Assembly (NCBI GenBank): GCA_049975405.1
Contig: JBNGDK010000001.1
Span: 38,593 to 102,592 of the forward strand
Reading direction: 5' to 3'
Source of the DNA: Candidatus Methanospirareceae archaeon
GTDB lineage: Archaea; Halobacteriota; Syntropharchaeia; Alkanophagales; Methanospirareceae
Length of the DNA stretch: 64,000 nt
The number at the start of each line of letters is the position of its first letter. Position 1 is the stretch's first letter. Positions 4,591 to 52,918 of this stretch are shown here, piece by piece. Position numbers and translations under genes: made by a program. The notes beneath the pieces are model-generated. The model saw only the letters and a program-made list of their open reading frames with translations. It did not search any database and was not told where the DNA came from.

Positions 4591-6144
<1,554 letters not shown>

Positions 6145-6226
6145 GCTGAAAGTATCGTCGGATTGTGGGTGAGCTTCTCAAAACTTTACATTATCGCATG
6201 GTGTATAGCTAGCTGGGAGATGGGCC

Positions 6227-6298
6227 GGGCTCGTAGATCAGTGGAAGATCGTCGCCTTTGCGAGGCGAAGGCCCTGGGTTCAAATCCCAGCGAGTCCA
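6227..6298 (+). tRNA. tRNA-Ala (anticodon TGC) in the 16S-23S spacer
   Basis: Sequence is GGGCTCGTAGATCAGTGGAAGATCGTCGCCTTTGCGAGGCGAAGGCCCTGGGTTCAAATCCCAGCGAGTCCA. The acceptor stem is 7 bp with a G3:U70 wobble, which is the tRNA-Ala identity pair. CCA is not encoded. Confidence 0.9.
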
Positions 6299-6456
6299 TC
6301 CATGCGTGGGACTGATGGTGAGGAAGCTGTATGTATGTAAATGCACCTAGCAACCCGGGTGTTGCTAGGGAAGTACCGATGGCGAGGCGTGGCCTCTGCC
6401 AGATGAGGTGTGTAGACGCACTTGACAACTCTGACATCCAATGGGCTTAGTGAGAC

Positions 6457-9385
<2,929 letters not shown>

Positions 9386-9535
9386 ATCTCGCTGAGCTCA
9401 GATGAAATCAGAGTTGCAAGTGCGTTTGCCCTTTTCCTCACCTTCTTATTTTTGTAAGAGCACGTAACCACGGTAGTGGAACTCAGGCACATAACCTATT
9501 TTTAGATCTCAGTGCTATCAATTAGCAAGAGTTGG

Positions 9536-9607
9536 GCCAGGGTGGCGGAGCGGCTACGCGGCTGACTGCAGATCAGCTACACCCCAGTTCGAATCTGGGC
9601 CCTGGCT
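9536..9607 (+). tRNA. tRNA-Cys (anticodon GCA) immediately downstream of 23S
   Basis: Acceptor stem is GCCAGGG/CCCTGGC. Anticodon stem is GCTGA/TCAGC with loop CTGCAGA. T-arm is CCCAG-TTCGAAT-CTGGG. Confidence 0.85.
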
Positions 9608-9844
9608 TCCCGGTATCTCCAGTGGATCGTTGGTCCGGTGCGTACTTCTTTCACTATACGTATAACGTTGTTCGTTGTGTGGTACGTGCCTCTTCGCACG
9701 AGATCGGGACGCCACTGCTTTTCCCGTTTAAAAACGGTTAATTCCCCTAAAAGACGGATAATACTCAGTTAATTTACGAAAAAAACGTTATTTTATCTCA
9801 AATACAAATTTAAACGCCTATAAACGCTCAGAATTAGGTGCAAC

Positions 9845-27667: not shown

Positions 27668-28732
27668 ATGCCTCAGCCTATCACGAAACGGTCGAAGAAG
27701 AGTGGACTGCCACCGGGCACGCTCATTCATATCGGCGAGCGGAAGACCGAGAAGGTACGTATTACGCTCATTGATTATGATGAAGAGCAGTTAGAGGAGC
27801 GTGAAGTAGAACGGGTCGAAGAGGTCTTTACCTTTAACCAGCGGCCCACAGTCACCTGGATCAACATTGATGGTATCCATGATGTAGAGCTGATGAAAGC
27901 GGTCGGGCAGCATTTCGGCGTTCATCCACTCCTCCTAGAGGACATTCTGAACACTGAGCAGCGTCCCAAGATGGATGATTACGAGTCATACCTCTTCCTC
28001 GTCCTAAAGATGCTCTATTATAACGGGGAAGAGCGCGAGATCGAGGCCGAGCAGGTGAGCTTGATACTTGGTTCGACCTTCGTTATCTCCTTCCAGGAAC
28101 GCGAGGGCGACGTCTTCAATTTCGTGCGTGACCGCATCAGGAACAAGAAAGGGCGGATACGAAAGGCGGGTCCCGATTATCTTGCCTACGCATTGATCGA
28201 TGCGATCGTGGATAACTATTTCATGATCCTGGAGAAGATCGGGGAGGTGATTGAGGATACCGAGGAGGAACTGGTGACCAATCCGACGCCAGAGACGATA
28301 CGCACCATCCACGGCCTCAAACGGAGCATGATCTTCCTCCGGAAGTCCGTCTGGCCGCTTCGTGAGGTCCTCAGCGGCCTTGAACGTCTTGAATCACCGC
28401 TCATTCAGGAGCCCACCGACATTTATCTCCGCGATCTCTACGACCACACCATCCAGGTGATCGACACCGTCGAGAATTTCCGCGATATGATCGCCGGGAT
28501 GCTCGATATTTACCTCTCCAGCCTCAGCAACAAGATGAACGAGATCATGAAGGTGCTGACCATCATCGCCACGATCTTTATCCCATTGACGTTTATAGCG
28601 GGCATCTACGGCATGAATTTCGAATACATGCCCGAGCTCGGCTGGCGCTGGGGCTACCCTGCTGTTTGGATTGTGATAGTTGCGATTTGCGCTACGATGG
28701 TTCTTTACTTCAGACGAAGAGGATGGTTGTGA
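27668..28732 (+). CDS. corA: Magnesium/cobalt transporter CorA
   Basis: 354 aa. C-terminal two TM helices with the YGMNFEYMPEL (GMN) signature. Confidence 0.9.
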   Translation: MPQPITKRSKKSGLPPGTLIHIGERKTEKVRITLIDYDEEQLEEREVERVEEVFTFNQRPTVTWINIDGIHDVELMKAVGQHFGVHPLLLEDILNTEQRPKMDDYESYLFLVLKMLYYNGEEREIEAEQVSLILGSTFVISFQEREGDVFNFVRDRIRNKKGRIRKAGPDYLAYALIDAIVDNYFMILEKIGEVIEDTEEELVTNPTPETIRTIHGLKRSMIFLRKSVWPLREVLSGLERLESPLIQEPTDIYLRDLYDHTIQVIDTVENFRDMIAGMLDIYLSSLSNKMNEIMKVLTIIATIFIPLTFIAGIYGMNFEYMPELGWRWGYPAVWIVIVAICATMVLYFRRRGWL

Positions 28733-28798
28733 ATGCATAAAACAATAGATGGGAGCAAATTATCTGAGCCCAAACTGCTTAAAGAAGGAAGTGAGGCC

Positions 28799-29112
28799 AT
28801 GAGGATACAAGGCATTTTTGAAGAATTCAAGAAGGAACTTGAGAAATTATATGGTGCAAGATTGAAGCAAGTTATTCTTTACGGCTAATGGGCACGAGGA
28901 GATGCTGCTGCGGATTCTGATATTGACTTACTCGTTGTTCTTGAGGGTGAAATCAGTCCTGGTGCAGAGATTGATCGGATGATCGATATAATTACAGGAA
29001 TCAACCTAAAATATGATTTATTACTTTTCATTTATCCAATATCTGAGCGGGATTATTCCGCTATACCGAGCCTATTGCTCCTTAACGTACGCAGGGAAGG
29101 GATACCAGCGTG
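28799..29112 (+). pseudogene. Minimal nucleotidyltransferase (MNT, Pol-beta superfamily) antitoxin gene interrupted by an in-frame TAA
   Basis: MRIQGIFEEF...ILYG*WARGDAADSDIDLLVVLEG. The stop replaces the conserved Ser of the GS...D.D motif at 28886-28888. The region is low in GC. Confidence 0.6.
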
Positions 29113-29193
29113 AAGGAAATAAATTCGCTGCTCGAAAGGACAAATAGATATCTCAGAAGCGCGGAATTACTTCTCGTATCTCTAAGTGGCTAG
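29109..29193 (+). pseudogene. Truncated HEPN-domain toxin gene remnant (start overlaps MNT stop, GTGA)
   Basis: VKEINSLLERTNRYLRSAELLLVS* is a HEPN N-terminal helix pattern. It ends after 28 codons where the vapC 3' end begins. Confidence 0.35.
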
Positions 29194-29565
29194 AAACAGC
29201 TTCAAGCCGAAATCGCAGAACCGTTCAAAATGCACGTTGTTCAGCGTGGCGAGCCGCGCATCTCGGTTGATGCACATGGCTGCAATCATCGCGTCAAACC
29301 TTCCAGCGGGCTTGCCCCGCTTCTCCACTTCCACTTCAAGCTTTGCTGAGCGTAGCGCATCGCGCCGTGTAAAGTCCACGATCGTAAACTCCAGCAGCTC
29401 ATCCAATGTCTTTTTCCTCACCTTATAAAAACCGTACAAAATTTCATGAAGGTTAATCGAGGTGGTAGCGATCTCGTATCCCTCTATTTTTGCCAGTATC
29501 TCCGCACCTACTGCGGATTCCTTATCGAAGATCTCGATGAGGACATCACTATCCAGGACGATCAT
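29182..29565 (-). CDS. vapC: PIN-domain ribonuclease toxin VapC
   Basis: Start at the internal Met (MIVLDSDVLIEIF...), giving the PIN N-terminal acidic motif. About 127 aa. Confidence 0.8.
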   Translation of the reverse strand: MIVLDSDVLIEIFDKESAVGAEILAKIEGYEIATTSINLHEILYGFYKVRKKTLDELLEFTIVDFTRRDALRSAKLEVEVEKRGKPAGRFDAMIAAMCINRDARLATLNNVHFERFCDFGLKLFLAT

Positions 29566-29806
29566 CAAAAGCTCGTTTTTCCCCCCGTTTCGCGTATATC
29601 TCCTTGAGAATAATATCCTTTTCTGCACTGCGGAGTTCGAGCGTTTTCCGTAAATTCTTCAGCAATTCGATATTTTTTCTTTCCTCTTTCCCTTCACCCA
29701 GCAGGTGCTCCAGGAAATCATTGAGTGACGCATCCCCTTTCAGGGCACGCAATTTCTCATACAAATCGTCCCGTATTGTTATCGTCTTCGACATGGTTCC
29801 TGTCAC
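29549..29806 (-). CDS. vapB: VapB-like antitoxin (RHH/CopG-type)
   Basis: 85 aa (MSKTITIRDDLYEKLRALKG...). It overlaps the vapC start by 17 nt. Confidence 0.6.
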   Translation of the reverse strand: MTGTMSKTITIRDDLYEKLRALKGDASLNDFLEHLLGEGKEERKNIELLKNLRKTLELRSAEKDIILKEIYAKRGEKRAFDDRPG

Positions 29807-29899
29807 TTTTAATAAGATCTTCTCGTTTTAAATTTTGCCTGTTCACCAAAAATGTTTTCCAGAGATGTTTTTCAGAGATGAAAATACCACTGCGCACCA

Positions 29900-31084
29900 T
29901 CAAAACATCGTCTTCACGAGGCTCATAAGAATCCTGGGATTCTTCATAATGAGCGTCTTCAGAAACGCGCGTTCACTGTACTCTTTCAGTTTGATCTCGC
30001 CGCGAAGGGGCTGGAAGAACTTTGTCAGCTCCTGCTCGTTCAGATTCAGCACGATGTTCTTCGCCTTCAAGCCCACCTCGAGTACCCGCCCGAATTCGCG
30101 TTTCCACCGCTTCTCATATTCCCGTAACCGCTTCTTCGAGACGTTCTGCTCCTTCACCGCCTTCGCAATAACTTCGCCGGCGATTCTGCCGCCCTGGACC
30201 GCCTGCAGAATCCCTCCGCCCGTGATCGGCTGCACGTGCCGTGCCGCATCACCCACTAAAACTACACCGTTCGCAACGGTCTCGTAAACGGGCCCGCTTA
30301 GAGGCACCACACCATAGATCTCCGCCAGCACCTTCCCGTCCGGGAACCGCTGATTGACAAAGGAGCGCAGATAATCGCTTGCGCGATGGCCCTCACCAGA
30401 GACATCACCACCGATCCCCAGGCCGACGTTCGCGCAGCGTTTGCCTTTCGGGAATATCCAGAGATAGCCCTTTGGCGCGATTCCACGGCCGAAGTACGTA
30501 TCCAAATAATGTTCGTTCACATCGATATCGCTCATAAGGAACTCCGCACACGTGCACACATCCGACAGGGACAATCGCGTATCGATTCCCGCCCAGCGAC
30601 CCACACGTGACTCCACACCGTCCGCACCGACCACAACATCCGCACGAATACACCGTTCCTCGTCCGGCGTTCGCACGCACACGCCCGTTACAGTGTCCTT
30701 CTCATGAACAAGGCCATAAGCCTGCGTCTTCACCCGCACGTCGGCACCCGCACGCGCCGCCTGCTGCGCCAGATGCTTGTCAAAGAGCCGCCGCTCCAGC
30801 ACGTAACCAGCAACATCGGAGCCATCAACCGAGAGCGAGACCGCCGTACCGTCCGGACCATAGGTGGAAATCCCTTTGACCTCCGTGCAGATCCACCGCG
30901 GATCAATCTCTACATACCGCTTAATCTCCCTGCTCACGCCCTCCGCGCACCTTACCGGCACGCCGATCTCCGCGTTGCGTTCGATGAGCAGCACGTCCAG
31001 ACCGTTCTCCGCCGCTGTTCGTGCCGTTACGCTCCCTGCAGGGCCTGCACCAACCACAACAACGTCATAAGACTCCGCGATCAT
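29900..31084 (-). CDS. Geranylgeranyl reductase (digeranylgeranylglycerophospholipid reductase)
   Basis: FAD-binding N-terminus YDVVVVGAGPAGS. 394 aa, typical of archaeal GGR. Confidence 0.9.
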   Translation of the reverse strand: MIAESYDVVVVGAGPAGSVTARTAAENGLDVLLIERNAEIGVPVRCAEGVSREIKRYVEIDPRWICTEVKGISTYGPDGTAVSLSVDGSDVAGYVLERRLFDKHLAQQAARAGADVRVKTQAYGLVHEKDTVTGVCVRTPDEERCIRADVVVGADGVESRVGRWAGIDTRLSLSDVCTCAEFLMSDIDVNEHYLDTYFGRGIAPKGYLWIFPKGKRCANVGLGIGGDVSGEGHRASDYLRSFVNQRFPDGKVLAEIYGVVPLSGPVYETVANGVVLVGDAARHVQPITGGGILQAVQGGRIAGEVIAKAVKEQNVSKKRLREYEKRWKREFGRVLEVGLKAKNIVLNLNEQELTKFFQPLRGEIKLKEYSERAFLKTLIMKNPRILMSLVKTMF

Positions 31085-33294: not shown

Positions 33295-34215
33295 ATGAGA
33301 AAAAGAGCGGATTACCTCGGCAGGAAACGTACGCTAATCTTTATTTTCTTTCTTCTAATGGGGATTTCGGCTCTGCCCGTGATGGCGAGCGCGCTTCCTG
33401 ACGAGAGCTGTAGTGGTACTGTGAACGAAGAGCAGCAAGAGATCCTCTGGCAGGGTGACGTGATTCTAACGAACAGAACGACGATCACGGTGACGGCGCA
33501 CAATAGCGGCGTTGAGTATGAGGTGAACGAAACGACTGCGCTCGGGGCATTGGACGCAGCCGCGACCGCCGGCGCGTTCAACTACACGGTGACGGACGAA
33601 TGGGGCTTCCTCTTCGCCGACTCGATCGCGGATGTCGCGCAAGAGGGCTGGAGCGGGTGGATCTACTGGGTGAACTACCCGGCGAAGCCGATGCCGCTGG
33701 TGGGCGCGACCGACCACGCGGTAGAAGATGGCGATGTGGTGACGTGGTACTGGAGCAGCAGCATGGAGATGACACCCGCGGATTCGCCACTGCTCGTGAT
33801 CATCAACGTCTCTGTGACGGAAGATCCAACGTCGCCAACACCAGATCCCACGCTTGAGCCTACGCCAGCGCTATCACCACGCCGCAGTGGCGGAAGGCGT
33901 GAACCACAGGACTCCGATGCCGATGGCTACTCAGACATCAAGGAACTTCTGGCCGAAACCAATCCGAACGATCCCACTGACTACCCGGGCAAAGTGCGTG
34001 CAGAAGTCACCATGACGACACCTGCACCATCCTCAACACCAATGAGCACGCCAGCACTAACACCAACTGCAACGCTGCCACAAACCTCGGTTGCAATAAC
34101 GCCGCCACCCGCATCATCAACCGCAACGCTTCAGGCGCCGGGTTTTGAAGCCATAGCTCTCATCGCCGGGTTGCTCGCCACAGCCTGTATCCTCAAACGA
34201 AAAACGAGCCGGTAA
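33295..34215 (+). CDS. Secreted protein with transcobalamin-like beta-domain (DUF4430-like) and C-terminal PGF-CTERM archaeosortase signal
   Basis: N-terminal signal peptide. GWSGWIYWVN...GDVVTWYW motif resembling DUF4430. Thr/Pro-rich linker. C-terminus ...LQAPGFEAIALIAGLLATACILKRKTSR. Confidence 0.6.
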   Translation: MRKRADYLGRKRTLIFIFFLLMGISALPVMASALPDESCSGTVNEEQQEILWQGDVILTNRTTITVTAHNSGVEYEVNETTALGALDAAATAGAFNYTVTDEWGFLFADSIADVAQEGWSGWIYWVNYPAKPMPLVGATDHAVEDGDVVTWYWSSSMEMTPADSPLLVIINVSVTEDPTSPTPDPTLEPTPALSPRRSGGRREPQDSDADGYSDIKELLAETNPNDPTDYPGKVRAEVTMTTPAPSSTPMSTPALTPTATLPQTSVAITPPPASSTATLQAPGFEAIALIAGLLATACILKRKTSR

Positions 34216-34221
34216 CCAAGA

Positions 34222-35898
34222 ATGAGCAGATCAAGCCTCTTTCCTTCTTTTATCCCTCATCCATGTCTGTTCTCCGTTCTCTTAGTGGTTGCGCTATTTC
34301 TCACGCTACCCCTGACGCTCGCCGCCGTGAGCGACAGGGGGGGATACCCCATGCTCCAGTACGACGCGCAACGTACCGGGAACGCGAGCCGCACGGCACC
34401 AGGAACCGCCACGCTGCTCTGGCAATCGAGCGAGAAGACCGCCGGCTGCTTCCAGGCGGGACCAATCGTTGCCAACGACCGGGTCTACGTGGCTACCTGG
34501 GCGTCGTGGATGGCTGGAAATGCCACTGATGCGCTCTACTGCCTTGATTTGGAGACAGGCAGGGAAATTTGGAATAACACGAACGTTTACGGCGCCTCAA
34601 CGGCGGCATGTGCTAACAACAGGCTCTTTCTGGGCACCACAGCCGGAACCTTGGCGTGCGTCAATGCGACGAGCGGTGAAGTCCTCTGGAATAAGCAAAT
34701 AGATCCGAGTGCTTCGTATCATGGCGTCGCCTCCTCGCCGCTGGTGCACGAAAATCTGGTGTACGTCCTGAGCTTCTCGGATGGCACGCTCCATGCCTTC
34801 TCCTTTGACGGCACCGAGCAGTGGCACTTCTCCACCGGCGGCCAGATCTTCTGCTACGCCTCGCCCGCGGCATATGCGGATAAACTGCTCTTCGCCGGAA
34901 ACGCAGCAAATCAGCACGCGCTCTACTGCATGAACCTGAGTACGCACGAGGTGGTCTGGAAGTTCACTACGGCCACTGAAATCCGGGCCACACCTACCAT
35001 TTGGGCGGACGAAGATTTGGTCTTCTTCTCCACGAAGTACGTCATCGGGAAACCACATGGCCTCTACGCACTCAATCTGAGCACGGGTGTAGAGTCCTGG
35101 AACGTCACGCACAAATCGAGCTGGGCTTCTCCCGCGTTGAGCGACGGAAAACTGTACATTGGAGGCTCGGCCGTCGATTCCACGCTCTATTGCTACAACG
35201 CACGCAACGGCTCGCTCCTCTGGAAGAACGAGGAGATGCGCGGCTCGATCGACTCTTCACCGGTCGTCGCTGGTGGGAAGGTGTACTTCGGCACGAATGA
35301 AGTTGATGGAACGGTCTTCGCGGTGGATGCGGACACGGGAACCACGCTCTGGAGCTACACGCTTCACATCCCCCCGGGCTATGGTGGAGGATACAATATA
35401 GCATCACATCCAGCCGTCGCTGATCGCACGTTACTTATAGGAGTCGATAATATCGGTGTACTCGCCTTTCGTGATCCGCAGTTCGCGGAATTCGATACTG
35501 GCACGCCGGAGCATCCGTATCCAAGCATCCCTGGTACATTTTATGGGTCGCTCACGCCCGCACACGATCTCTTGGTAAACACAATGCTCTCATGGGCATG
35601 CGACGGAACCGGCGGACATGTTGAATACGTTAGGATATGGAACGATACGTGGATAGGCGCAACCGCGCAGTGGAACGGGTACGTGGGCGATTGGCACACT
35701 ATCACGTTTTCGGAACCATTTCTGCTTCATAAAAACGAACTCTATTATTATCGTATAGAAATCGGCTCATACCCGCAGCTGCACCATAAAAACGAGCTTA
35801 TAGTGAGCGATGGGATGATCACTTGCACGAACTTCACCGATGCAAACGGGGTGGCCCATTACGGGGCAATTCCCGCAATACGGTTGTATTTCTGGTAA
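34222..35898 (+). CDS. Secreted PQQ-repeat beta-propeller protein with extra C-terminal domain
   Basis: 558 aa with an N-terminal signal peptide. Repeated LYCxD/xGxxLW blade motifs are present (e.g. ALYCLDLETGREIWN, LACVNATSGEVLWN). Confidence 0.7.
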   Translation: MSRSSLFPSFIPHPCLFSVLLVVALFLTLPLTLAAVSDRGGYPMLQYDAQRTGNASRTAPGTATLLWQSSEKTAGCFQAGPIVANDRVYVATWASWMAGNATDALYCLDLETGREIWNNTNVYGASTAACANNRLFLGTTAGTLACVNATSGEVLWNKQIDPSASYHGVASSPLVHENLVYVLSFSDGTLHAFSFDGTEQWHFSTGGQIFCYASPAAYADKLLFAGNAANQHALYCMNLSTHEVVWKFTTATEIRATPTIWADEDLVFFSTKYVIGKPHGLYALNLSTGVESWNVTHKSSWASPALSDGKLYIGGSAVDSTLYCYNARNGSLLWKNEEMRGSIDSSPVVAGGKVYFGTNEVDGTVFAVDADTGTTLWSYTLHIPPGYGGGYNIASHPAVADRTLLIGVDNIGVLAFRDPQFAEFDTGTPEHPYPSIPGTFYGSLTPAHDLLVNTMLSWACDGTGGHVEYVRIWNDTWIGATAQWNGYVGDWHTITFSEPFLLHKNELYYYRIEIGSYPQLHHKNELIVSDGMITCTNFTDANGVAHYGAIPAIRLYFW

Positions 35899-52819: not shown

Positions 52820-52918
52820 CGCCGAGGAAGGGATTTGAACCCTTGAGTTCCTTTCGGAACACAGGCTATCTAGTCCGGAGAGCTCCAGGCCTGCGCCTTA
52901 CCGCTCAGCCACCTCGGC
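52820..52918 (-). tRNA. tRNA-Ser (anticodon GGA) with a ~15-nt intron 3' of position 37
   Basis: Reverse complement reads GCCGAGGTGGCTGAGCGGTAAGGCGCAGGCCTGGAG[CTCTCCGGACTAGAT]AGCCTGTGTTCCGAAAGGAACTCAAGGGTTCAAATCCCTTCCTCGGCG. 3-bp D stem, long variable arm, anticodon stem CAGGC/GCCTG. Confidence 0.75.

Follow-up and report, generated by a model that had tools for sequence, protein, structure and literature searches.

Organization of the corA–GGR Interval

The interval between the Mg2+ transporter gene corA and the geranylgeranyl reductase gene (GGR) was analysed in a 64-kb stretch of contig JBNGDK010000001.1. This whole stretch, hereafter the window, belongs to a metagenome-assembled genome (MAG) labelled 'Candidatus Methanospirareceae archaeon' by NCBI. 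The family name Methanospirareceae was coined for a deep-branching ANME-1 clade (PMC9894754). The interval holds a decayed MNT–HEPN toxin–antitoxin (TA) pair and, running against it, an intact vapBC pair (Table 1). Gene families were assigned by a Pfam profile scan of the locus. Coordinates are positions in the window, and L-numbers are labels of the loci or contigs compared with it. The corA gene was syntenic in L089, L093, L113, and L116, and GGR was syntenic across all related loci. No second copy of MNT, HEPN, or vapBC was found in the window.

Table 1. Features of the corA–GGR interval and its flanks.
Feature	Coordinates	Strand	Evidence and remarks
corA, Mg2+ transporter	27668..28732	+	Pfam CorA E = 6.7e-75; left flank of the variable site
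Tract 97.7% identical to L116	28778..29923		Flanks (2 kb each side) ~89%
psi-MNT, MntA-type nucleotidyltransferase antitoxin, 104 codons	28799..29113	+	Pseudogene
In-frame TAA in place of the G-S motif Ser codon	28886..28888	+	Codon 30 of MNT
HEPN (HepT-type toxin) remnant, native codons 1–22	29110..29174	+	Open frame continues to TAG 29191–29193
713-bp segment without counterpart in MNT–HEPN-only relatives	29175..29887		blastn and alignment against L081
vapC, PIN-domain toxin, 127 aa, intact	29182..29565	-	Pfam PIN E = 5.6e-12
vapB, PF02697 antitoxin, 81 aa, intact	29549..29794	-	40.3 bits; cut-off 27.9
vapB upstream region, 32% GC	29795..29887	-	Read by eye; promoter role presumed
GGR, geranylgeranyl reductase	29900..31084	-	Pfam GGR_cat E = 1.3e-23 and FAD_binding_3; right flank

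The GC content of the interval was 43.9%, compared with 55.5% for the whole window. It was about the lowest-GC 1167-bp stretch of the 64 kb, with just 0.016% of sliding windows lower. A previous sequence-only reading had described a low-GC island between corA and GGR, with an MNT gene killed by a TAA at its GS motif, a GTGA overlap of the MNT stop and the HEPN start, and an intact convergent vapC–vapB pair overlapping by 17 nt. All of these were recovered in the present analysis. The GC trough had two parts: the MNT gene and HEPN stub were at 0.40, while vapB was at 0.45 (0.32–0.36 upstream of vapB) and vapC at 0.50. The MNT–HEPN module had 39–42% GC in every relative, with host GC of 45% or 55%. 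The low GC of the MNT–HEPN half is therefore intrinsic to the module, and its use as a mark of recent MNT–HEPN transfer was rejected.

Inactivation of the MNT Gene

The MNT frame was open along all 104 codons except for the single TAA. The relatives have Ser at this codon (TCA in L081 and TCG in L089) within the motif LYG-S-WARG, and TAA is one transversion from the TCA of L081. When the stop was read as Ser, the product matched NTP_transf_2 (E = 7.9e-11) and Polbeta (E = 2.2e-8). The corresponding scores, obtained only with this reading, were 42.6 bits for PF01909 (curated cut-off 21) and 34.6 bits for PF18765 (curated cut-off 26.9). The G-S...D-x-D motif was not present in an unbroken frame: the Ser codon was lost, and DSDID was kept. 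The gene was 87% identical to an intact 104-aa homologue, P0001. It is a pseudogene of its family and not a functional member.

Substitutions were polarised with three outgroups (L089, L109, or L113). The window branch had 21–22 nucleotide changes in MNT and the L081 branch had 4; the amino acid changes were 11–13 and 0–2, respectively. In GGR, the window and L081 branches had 51 and 42 nucleotide changes and 14 and 15 amino acid changes. The branch counts of MNT differed from those of GGR (Fisher, p = 0.01 for nucleotides and p = 0.001 for amino acids), and the difference held with all three outgroups. The data show relaxed evolution of the window MNT.

HEPN Stub and Its Joint with vapC

The HEPN stub is an open frame of 27 sense codons and a stop at 29110–29193. 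Its start overlaps the MNT stop as GTGA (29110–29113), and the gene order is that of the intact relatives. This one-operon adjacency with overlapping stop and start is the layout of type VII TA modules. In a tblastn search with the L089 HEPN, residues 1–22 matched at 82% identity (29110–29175), and residues 23–128 had no match anywhere in the window. The stub gave no Pfam hit; with residues 1–22 of 128 left, it lacks the HEPN domain with its Arg-containing RNase motif. On sequence grounds, the identity over residues 1–22 together with synteny establishes that the stub derives from HEPN. Its final five codons (VSLSG*) are antisense of the vapC 3′ end.

Homology to the MNT–HEPN relatives, by blastn and by MAFFT alignment against L081 and L089, stopped at 29174 and restarted at about 29871–29888. 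In blastn, the homology to L081, L089, L109, and L113 ended at 29174 or 29165. Between these points, 713 bp had come in (vapC, vapB, and 93 bp upstream of vapB) and 370 bp had gone out (HEPN codons 23–128 and about 50 bp, most of the 55–60-bp spacer). On the vapC side, homology to L093 extended to about 29176, reading GTATCT[C/T]T, a 5-nt indel, and then AAGTGGCTAG. The left joint is therefore fixed to 1–2 nt. It lies at 29174/29175, 7 nt past the vapC stop. Since HEPN residues 23–128 occur nowhere in the window, the event was a replacement and not a simple insertion.

The same TAA and an identical HEPN|vapC joint were found in two independent assemblies, L116 (GCA_016928455.1, 'Methanomicrobia archaeon') and L117 (SRR13394437). 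Both had further MNT lesions: the start changed from ATG to ATA, a 1-nt deletion, and a 2-nt insertion. Their stub had an added 5-nt insertion, so the stub was not kept as a small protein.

The shared lesions bear on an artefactual origin, in which the TAA would be a sequencing error and the joint a chimera formed when two co-occurring haplotypes were assembled into the MAG. The window does come from a MAG, and in the sister species both haplotypes of the site, that of L081–L088 and that of L093–L101, occurred in single samples (L085 and L097 in ERZ27248936; L086 and L099 in ERZ27248920). However, L116 and L117 came from other projects and carry the identical TAA and joint, which excludes sequencing error and chimeric assembly. 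In addition, the 11–13 lineage-specific MNT replacements go beyond one base error, and no k-mer is common to the parental sequences at the joint. An artefact is effectively refuted.

Ancestral State in Related Lineages

MNT (104 aa) and HEPN (128 aa) lay beside GGR in at least five related lineages. The gene order was DUF3160-corA-MNT-HEPN-GGR-Kae1 in L089/L090 (about 75% nucleotide identity to the window), Cpn60-MNT-HEPN-GGR-Kae1 in L109–L112 (about 70%), corA-MNT-HEPN-two unknown open reading frames (ORFs)-GGR in L113 (about 73%), and corA-MNT-HEPN-GGR in L081–L088 (about 90%). None of these loci contained vapBC. A full-length 128-aa HEPN (PF05168) was found at the same position in L089 and L109–L113. 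The module was under purifying selection, with omega of 0.12 for MNT and 0.10–0.27 for HEPN (among the intact copies, 0.12 and 0.10–0.17). The vapBC-free synteny and the purifying selection indicate that MNT–HEPN is old and was kept vertically beside GGR. Since lineages down to about 70–75% identity have MNT–HEPN and none has vapBC, vapBC was the later arrival. A spacer motif next to GGR was kept in L081, L089, and L113 and was missing in the vapBC carriers.

The sequence-only reading had HEPN cut off after 28 codons by a vapBC cassette that landed inside an older module. The truncation and the relative ages of the two modules were upheld by the stub and by synteny; the codon count was slightly off, with native sequence ending at codon 22, and the clean insertion gave way to an exchange of 370 bp for 713 bp. 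Alignment to relatives returned full-length HEPN genes and no conserved short ORF. The short direct repeats that it proposed around the segment were looked for and not found.

The HEPN of the L081 lineage (L081 486–872) had its own in-frame TAA (GAA>TAA, ...LISA*LLLKEG...) with MNT intact, and the same was seen in L082–L086 and L088. Only a 91-aa C-terminal HEPN ORF was called in 7 of the 8 assemblies checked. The L081 HEPN branch was not yet faster (31 versus 26 nt). This stop is apparently an independent, recent, toxin-first inactivation.

In the more distant L113, two AT-rich ORFs of 149 aa (30% GC) and 95 aa (28% GC) lay between the intact HEPN and GGR (L113 3692–4459). They represent another insertion in the HEPN–GGR spacer, one that spared HEPN. 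Neither matched a family in PADLOC, the one library searched.

The Intact vapBC Pair

The PIN domain of VapC (PF01850) matched at 46.8 bits against a cut-off of 23.6, over profile positions 1–117 of 120. In an 18-sequence alignment, all invariant residues of the subfamily were present, including D5, D7, E41, D91, and H112. The vapC gene starts with ATG, and the 3′ end of vapB overlaps this start by 17 nt. VapB scored above its cut-off and lies directly upstream of vapC, and the same pairing was found in L102–L108 and L116. VapC and VapB were 100% identical to NCBI MGC9443366.1 and MGC9443367.1, respectively, both encoded on a 103-kb contig of the MAG. Exact look-ups with the window VapC, GGR, and CorA proteins had given no match, and the MAG was recognised by the name that P0121 carries. 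Compared with L093, omega was 0.28 for vapC and 0.31 for vapB. From these features, the window pair would function as an ordinary VapBC module.

VapC homologues with 73–77% identity were always paired with a PF02697 gene. Their neighbourhoods were unrelated (ccm genes; phosphatase and NosD genes), and the DNA similarity was limited to the two coding regions. Unrelated contexts with similarity confined to two genes are as expected of a mobile two-gene cassette, which vapBC may be. In L093, vapC (L093 5155–5546) had an ATG>ATA start and the active-site change D91V, and vapBC appears to be decaying in some lineages.

By eye, the region upstream of vapB holds AT-rich TATA-like boxes. A 13-nt tandem repeat, two copies in perfect register (TGTTTTCCAGAGA/TGTTTTTCAGAGA), was also seen there at 29853–29878, beside the right junction. 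L116 and L117 have these 26 nt, and L093 lacks them. The repeat may serve as an operator or may be the scar of an insertion.

Alternative Cargo at the Site

L093–L101 were collinear with the window on both sides, the identity being 90% across corA and 88% starting at the vapC stop. In these loci, the gap between corA and vapC held about 3 kb of other cargo (L093 5612–8341): a PDC-M50A-like membrane protein gene and a ThsB-like TIR (PDC-M50B) gene, with two DUF1670 genes between them. No MNT or HEPN remnant was found in L093. L094 and L095 differed further out, and L094 had a HEC-01 pair (AAA_15 and DUF4276) in place of corA.

In the GGR–Kae1 region, L081 and L093 were 95% identical and locally 100%. 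Among the quartet sites of this region, 52 grouped L081 with L093 against the window, compared with 21 and 6 for the alternative groupings. Very close relatives were therefore wholly different in cargo, while the more distant window had vapBC and the GGR-side junction in common with L093. The corA–GGR site is a multi-haplotype turnover hot spot.

The order of arrival could be reversed if vapBC were the old resident beside GGR and a fragment with MNT and the HEPN 5′ end had been inserted next to it. The adjacency of vapBC and GGR in three lineages (window, L116, and L093) would fit such a course. However, the outgroups L089, L109, and L113 (70–75% identity), together with L081, have the full MNT–HEPN and no vapBC; the vapBC carriers lack the GGR-side spacer motif of L081, L089, and L113; and the quartet counts do not place these carriers basal. 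Reversed polarity is highly improbable.

A two-step course was also considered. vapBC would have landed in the HEPN–GGR spacer while MNT–HEPN was intact, perhaps within a bigger defence island like that of L093, and a later illegitimate deletion would have taken out the stretch from HEPN codon 23 to 7 nt past the vapC stop. In L093–L101, vapBC sits at this GGR-proximal junction too, with the TIR, DUF1670, and PDC-M50A genes after it, and L113 shows that other genes can enter between an intact HEPN and GGR. The joint has microhomology of 2 nt at most and lacks a target-site duplication, as a deletion joint would. However, this course needs more events than direct replacement, a haplotype with intact HEPN and vapBC was absent from the collections searched, and L093 has no trace of MNT or HEPN. 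It is considered a possible but rather unlikely course.

Exchange of the Composite Island

Inside the tract given in Table 1, the window differed from L116 at 26 of 1144 positions (2.3%), while in the flanks, 2 kb per side, the difference was 436 of 3992 (about 11%; Fisher, p = 3e-24). Within the tract, the identity was 96.8% for psi-MNT (with three indel columns), 93.8% for the stub, and 98.4% for vapC and vapB. This is the pattern expected if psi-MNT and the stub evolve neutrally. Selection cannot hold a pseudogene more tightly than corA or GGR; the island must therefore have passed between the lineages long after their split, at a time when the TAA and the joint already existed. The comparison indicates that the whole 1.15-kb composite island was exchanged recently between lineages.

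The exchange could also be read as the movement of the composite island between species as a discrete unit with defined ends, not by homologous recombination in the flanks. The GGR 3′ end would then be a preferred docking site for TA and defence cassettes; live vapBC would drive the spread, and dead MNT–HEPN would be carried along. This is consistent with the tract boundaries, which lie within tens of nucleotides of the island ends. The usual signs of an element with defined ends (insertion sequence, integron cassette, or integrative element) were lacking at the site, which had no repeats, target-site duplication, integrase, or tRNA. No direct repeats were found around the inserted segment, and direct or inverted repeats at the segment ends were chance-level matches only; one of these is a 12-nt match between 29172–29183 and 29472–29483, and by estimate a few such pairs would arise by chance. 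No tRNA or other RNA gene that could serve as an integration target was near the island, the closest tRNA being about 19 kb off, and no recombinase gene was seen in the gene reading of the corA–GGR interval. Movement as a discrete unit is unlikely.

Proposed History of the Locus

The reading preferred here is that a resident MNT–HEPN was overwritten by vapBC, that the orphan antitoxin decayed, and that the composite island was then exchanged; its probability is roughly 0.8. The corA–GGR spacer would first have held a long-resident, functional type VII module of MNT (104 aa) and a HEPN RNase (128 aa). Later, vapBC, a type II cassette of two genes that brought along its own upstream region, would have arrived about 12–30 nt past the GGR stop. 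The same event or a later deletion would have taken out HEPN codons 23–128 and most of the spacer, fusing HEPN codon 22 to the sequence 7 nt past the vapC stop. With the toxin gone, the MNT antitoxin would be unneeded and would have decayed, gaining the TAA in its catalytic G-S motif along with a burst of amino acid replacements. In the new module, VapB would neutralise the PIN RNase VapC by binding to it and would also regulate its own operon. The dead MNT–HEPN and live vapBC, 1.15 kb in all, would later have been swapped as a block between lineages about 11% apart in their flanks, presumably by homologous recombination in these flanks.

The order of the two losses can be considered from the function of such modules. 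In HEPN–MNT modules, HEPN is an RNase toxin that MNT neutralises by AMPylation (PMC7641770, PMC11586414). Loss of the antitoxin while the toxin is still active should be lethal, and the toxin was probably lost first and the antitoxin second. This order fits both observed states: the window, L116, and L117 have a truncated toxin and a decaying antitoxin, and L081 has a fresh nonsense codon in the toxin and an untouched antitoxin. AMPylation is moot at the window locus because MNT and HEPN are both inactivated.

In the simplest course of events, the haplotypes would form a chain: A, MNT–HEPN; B, psi-MNT–HEPN′–vapBC (the window); and C, another island plus vapBC. Since L093 with vapBC is sister to L081 without it, this distribution needs recombinational exchange of haplotypes or an old polymorphism, not plain vertical descent.

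Several points weigh against the overwriting of MNT–HEPN by vapBC followed by exchange. vapBC also stands beside GGR in L093, the sister of the vapBC-free L081. The intermediate haplotype, intact HEPN with vapBC, was not found in any collection searched; with an exact 25-nt vapC 3′ pattern, metagenome contigs gave L093-type loci only and viral contigs gave nothing. One-step replacement is indistinguishable from insertion followed by deletion. The edges of the high-identity tract lie about 20–60 nt from the island ends, with identity of about 80–89% just outside; they are sharper than random crossovers in the flanks predict. Finally, 9 of the 9 vapBC substitutions between the window and L116 were non-synonymous. 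By comparison with L093, 8 of them fall on the L116 branch, and one of these, L4>R, changes a residue that is invariant in the family (L116 3709–4321). Recent constraint on vapBC is not demonstrated by these sequences.

Comparison with Known Systems

The locus resembles the HepT/MntA type VII systems of Shewanella (SO_3166/SO_3165, PMC7641770) and Legionella (PMC11586414) in its order of MNT then HEPN and in the 4-nt GTGA overlap. Its MNT is a minimal 104-aa nucleotidyltransferase with a G-S...DxD motif, and the partner in the relatives is a 128-aa PF05168 HEPN. Unlike these systems, the window locus has both genes dead, with a TAA for the G-S Ser and 22 native HEPN codons that leave no RNase domain.

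The vapBC pair showed no substantial difference from archaeal VapBC type II modules. The antitoxin gene is upstream, it overlaps the toxin gene by 17 nt, and the PIN acidic residues are conserved. The window copy is notable just for its landing place.

Hot spots of defence and TA islands, exchanged through conserved flanking genes, have been described for bacterial pan-genomes. The present site is similar in its fixed corA and GGR flanks with alternative cargo: MNT–HEPN; psi-MNT with vapBC; or vapBC with PDC-M50/TIR and DUF1670 genes, and HEC-01 nearby in one variant. It is also similar in that the island is far more alike between lineages than the flanks are. It differs in its host, an archaeon from the Methanophagales/Methanomicrobia group, in the lack of any integrase, tRNA, or repeat at the site, and in the tract edges, which hug the island ends.

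Other Features of the Window

An archaeal rRNA operon was found at 4636–9610, with 16S rRNA (4636–6123), tRNA-Ala in the spacer (6227–6298), 23S rRNA (6451–9387), and tRNA-Cys (9535–9610). No 5S rRNA was reported at the gathering threshold. A 99-nt Rfam tRNA match at 52820–52918 (minus strand, 48.9 bits) was not reported by ARAGORN and is probably an intron-containing archaeal tRNA.

About 500 bp of the window (33818–34319) were missing from L093–L100. This segment covers the Pro/Thr/Ser-rich C-terminal part of a 306-aa secreted protein (33295–34215) and the start of the next gene, for a PQQ-repeat protein. In L093, the pair appears as a single 696-aa gene (DUF4430 plus PQQ).

A CorA search of species-representative genomes (L001–L080) gave no useful synteny. 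The nearest homologues were 60–72% identical (best 72%) and were spread over archaeal and many bacterial phyla. Such a spread points to frequent horizontal transfer of this type of corA or to mis-binning of contigs.

Significance

Nothing at the locus falls outside known classes: TA modules of types VII and II, pseudogenisation, and the turnover of defence islands. It is a case of ordinary turnover, with no new system or mechanism. It nevertheless offers a clean natural example of the death and replacement of a TA module. The toxin would have been lost first in three ways: truncated in the window, stopped by a nonsense codon in the sister lineage, and replaced completely in a third lineage. 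The orphan antitoxin decays measurably, and the incoming module would cross species boundaries. Among relatives of methane-cycling archaea, the corA–GGR interval is a variable site for defence and TA genes, and this is of use in annotation and strain typing.

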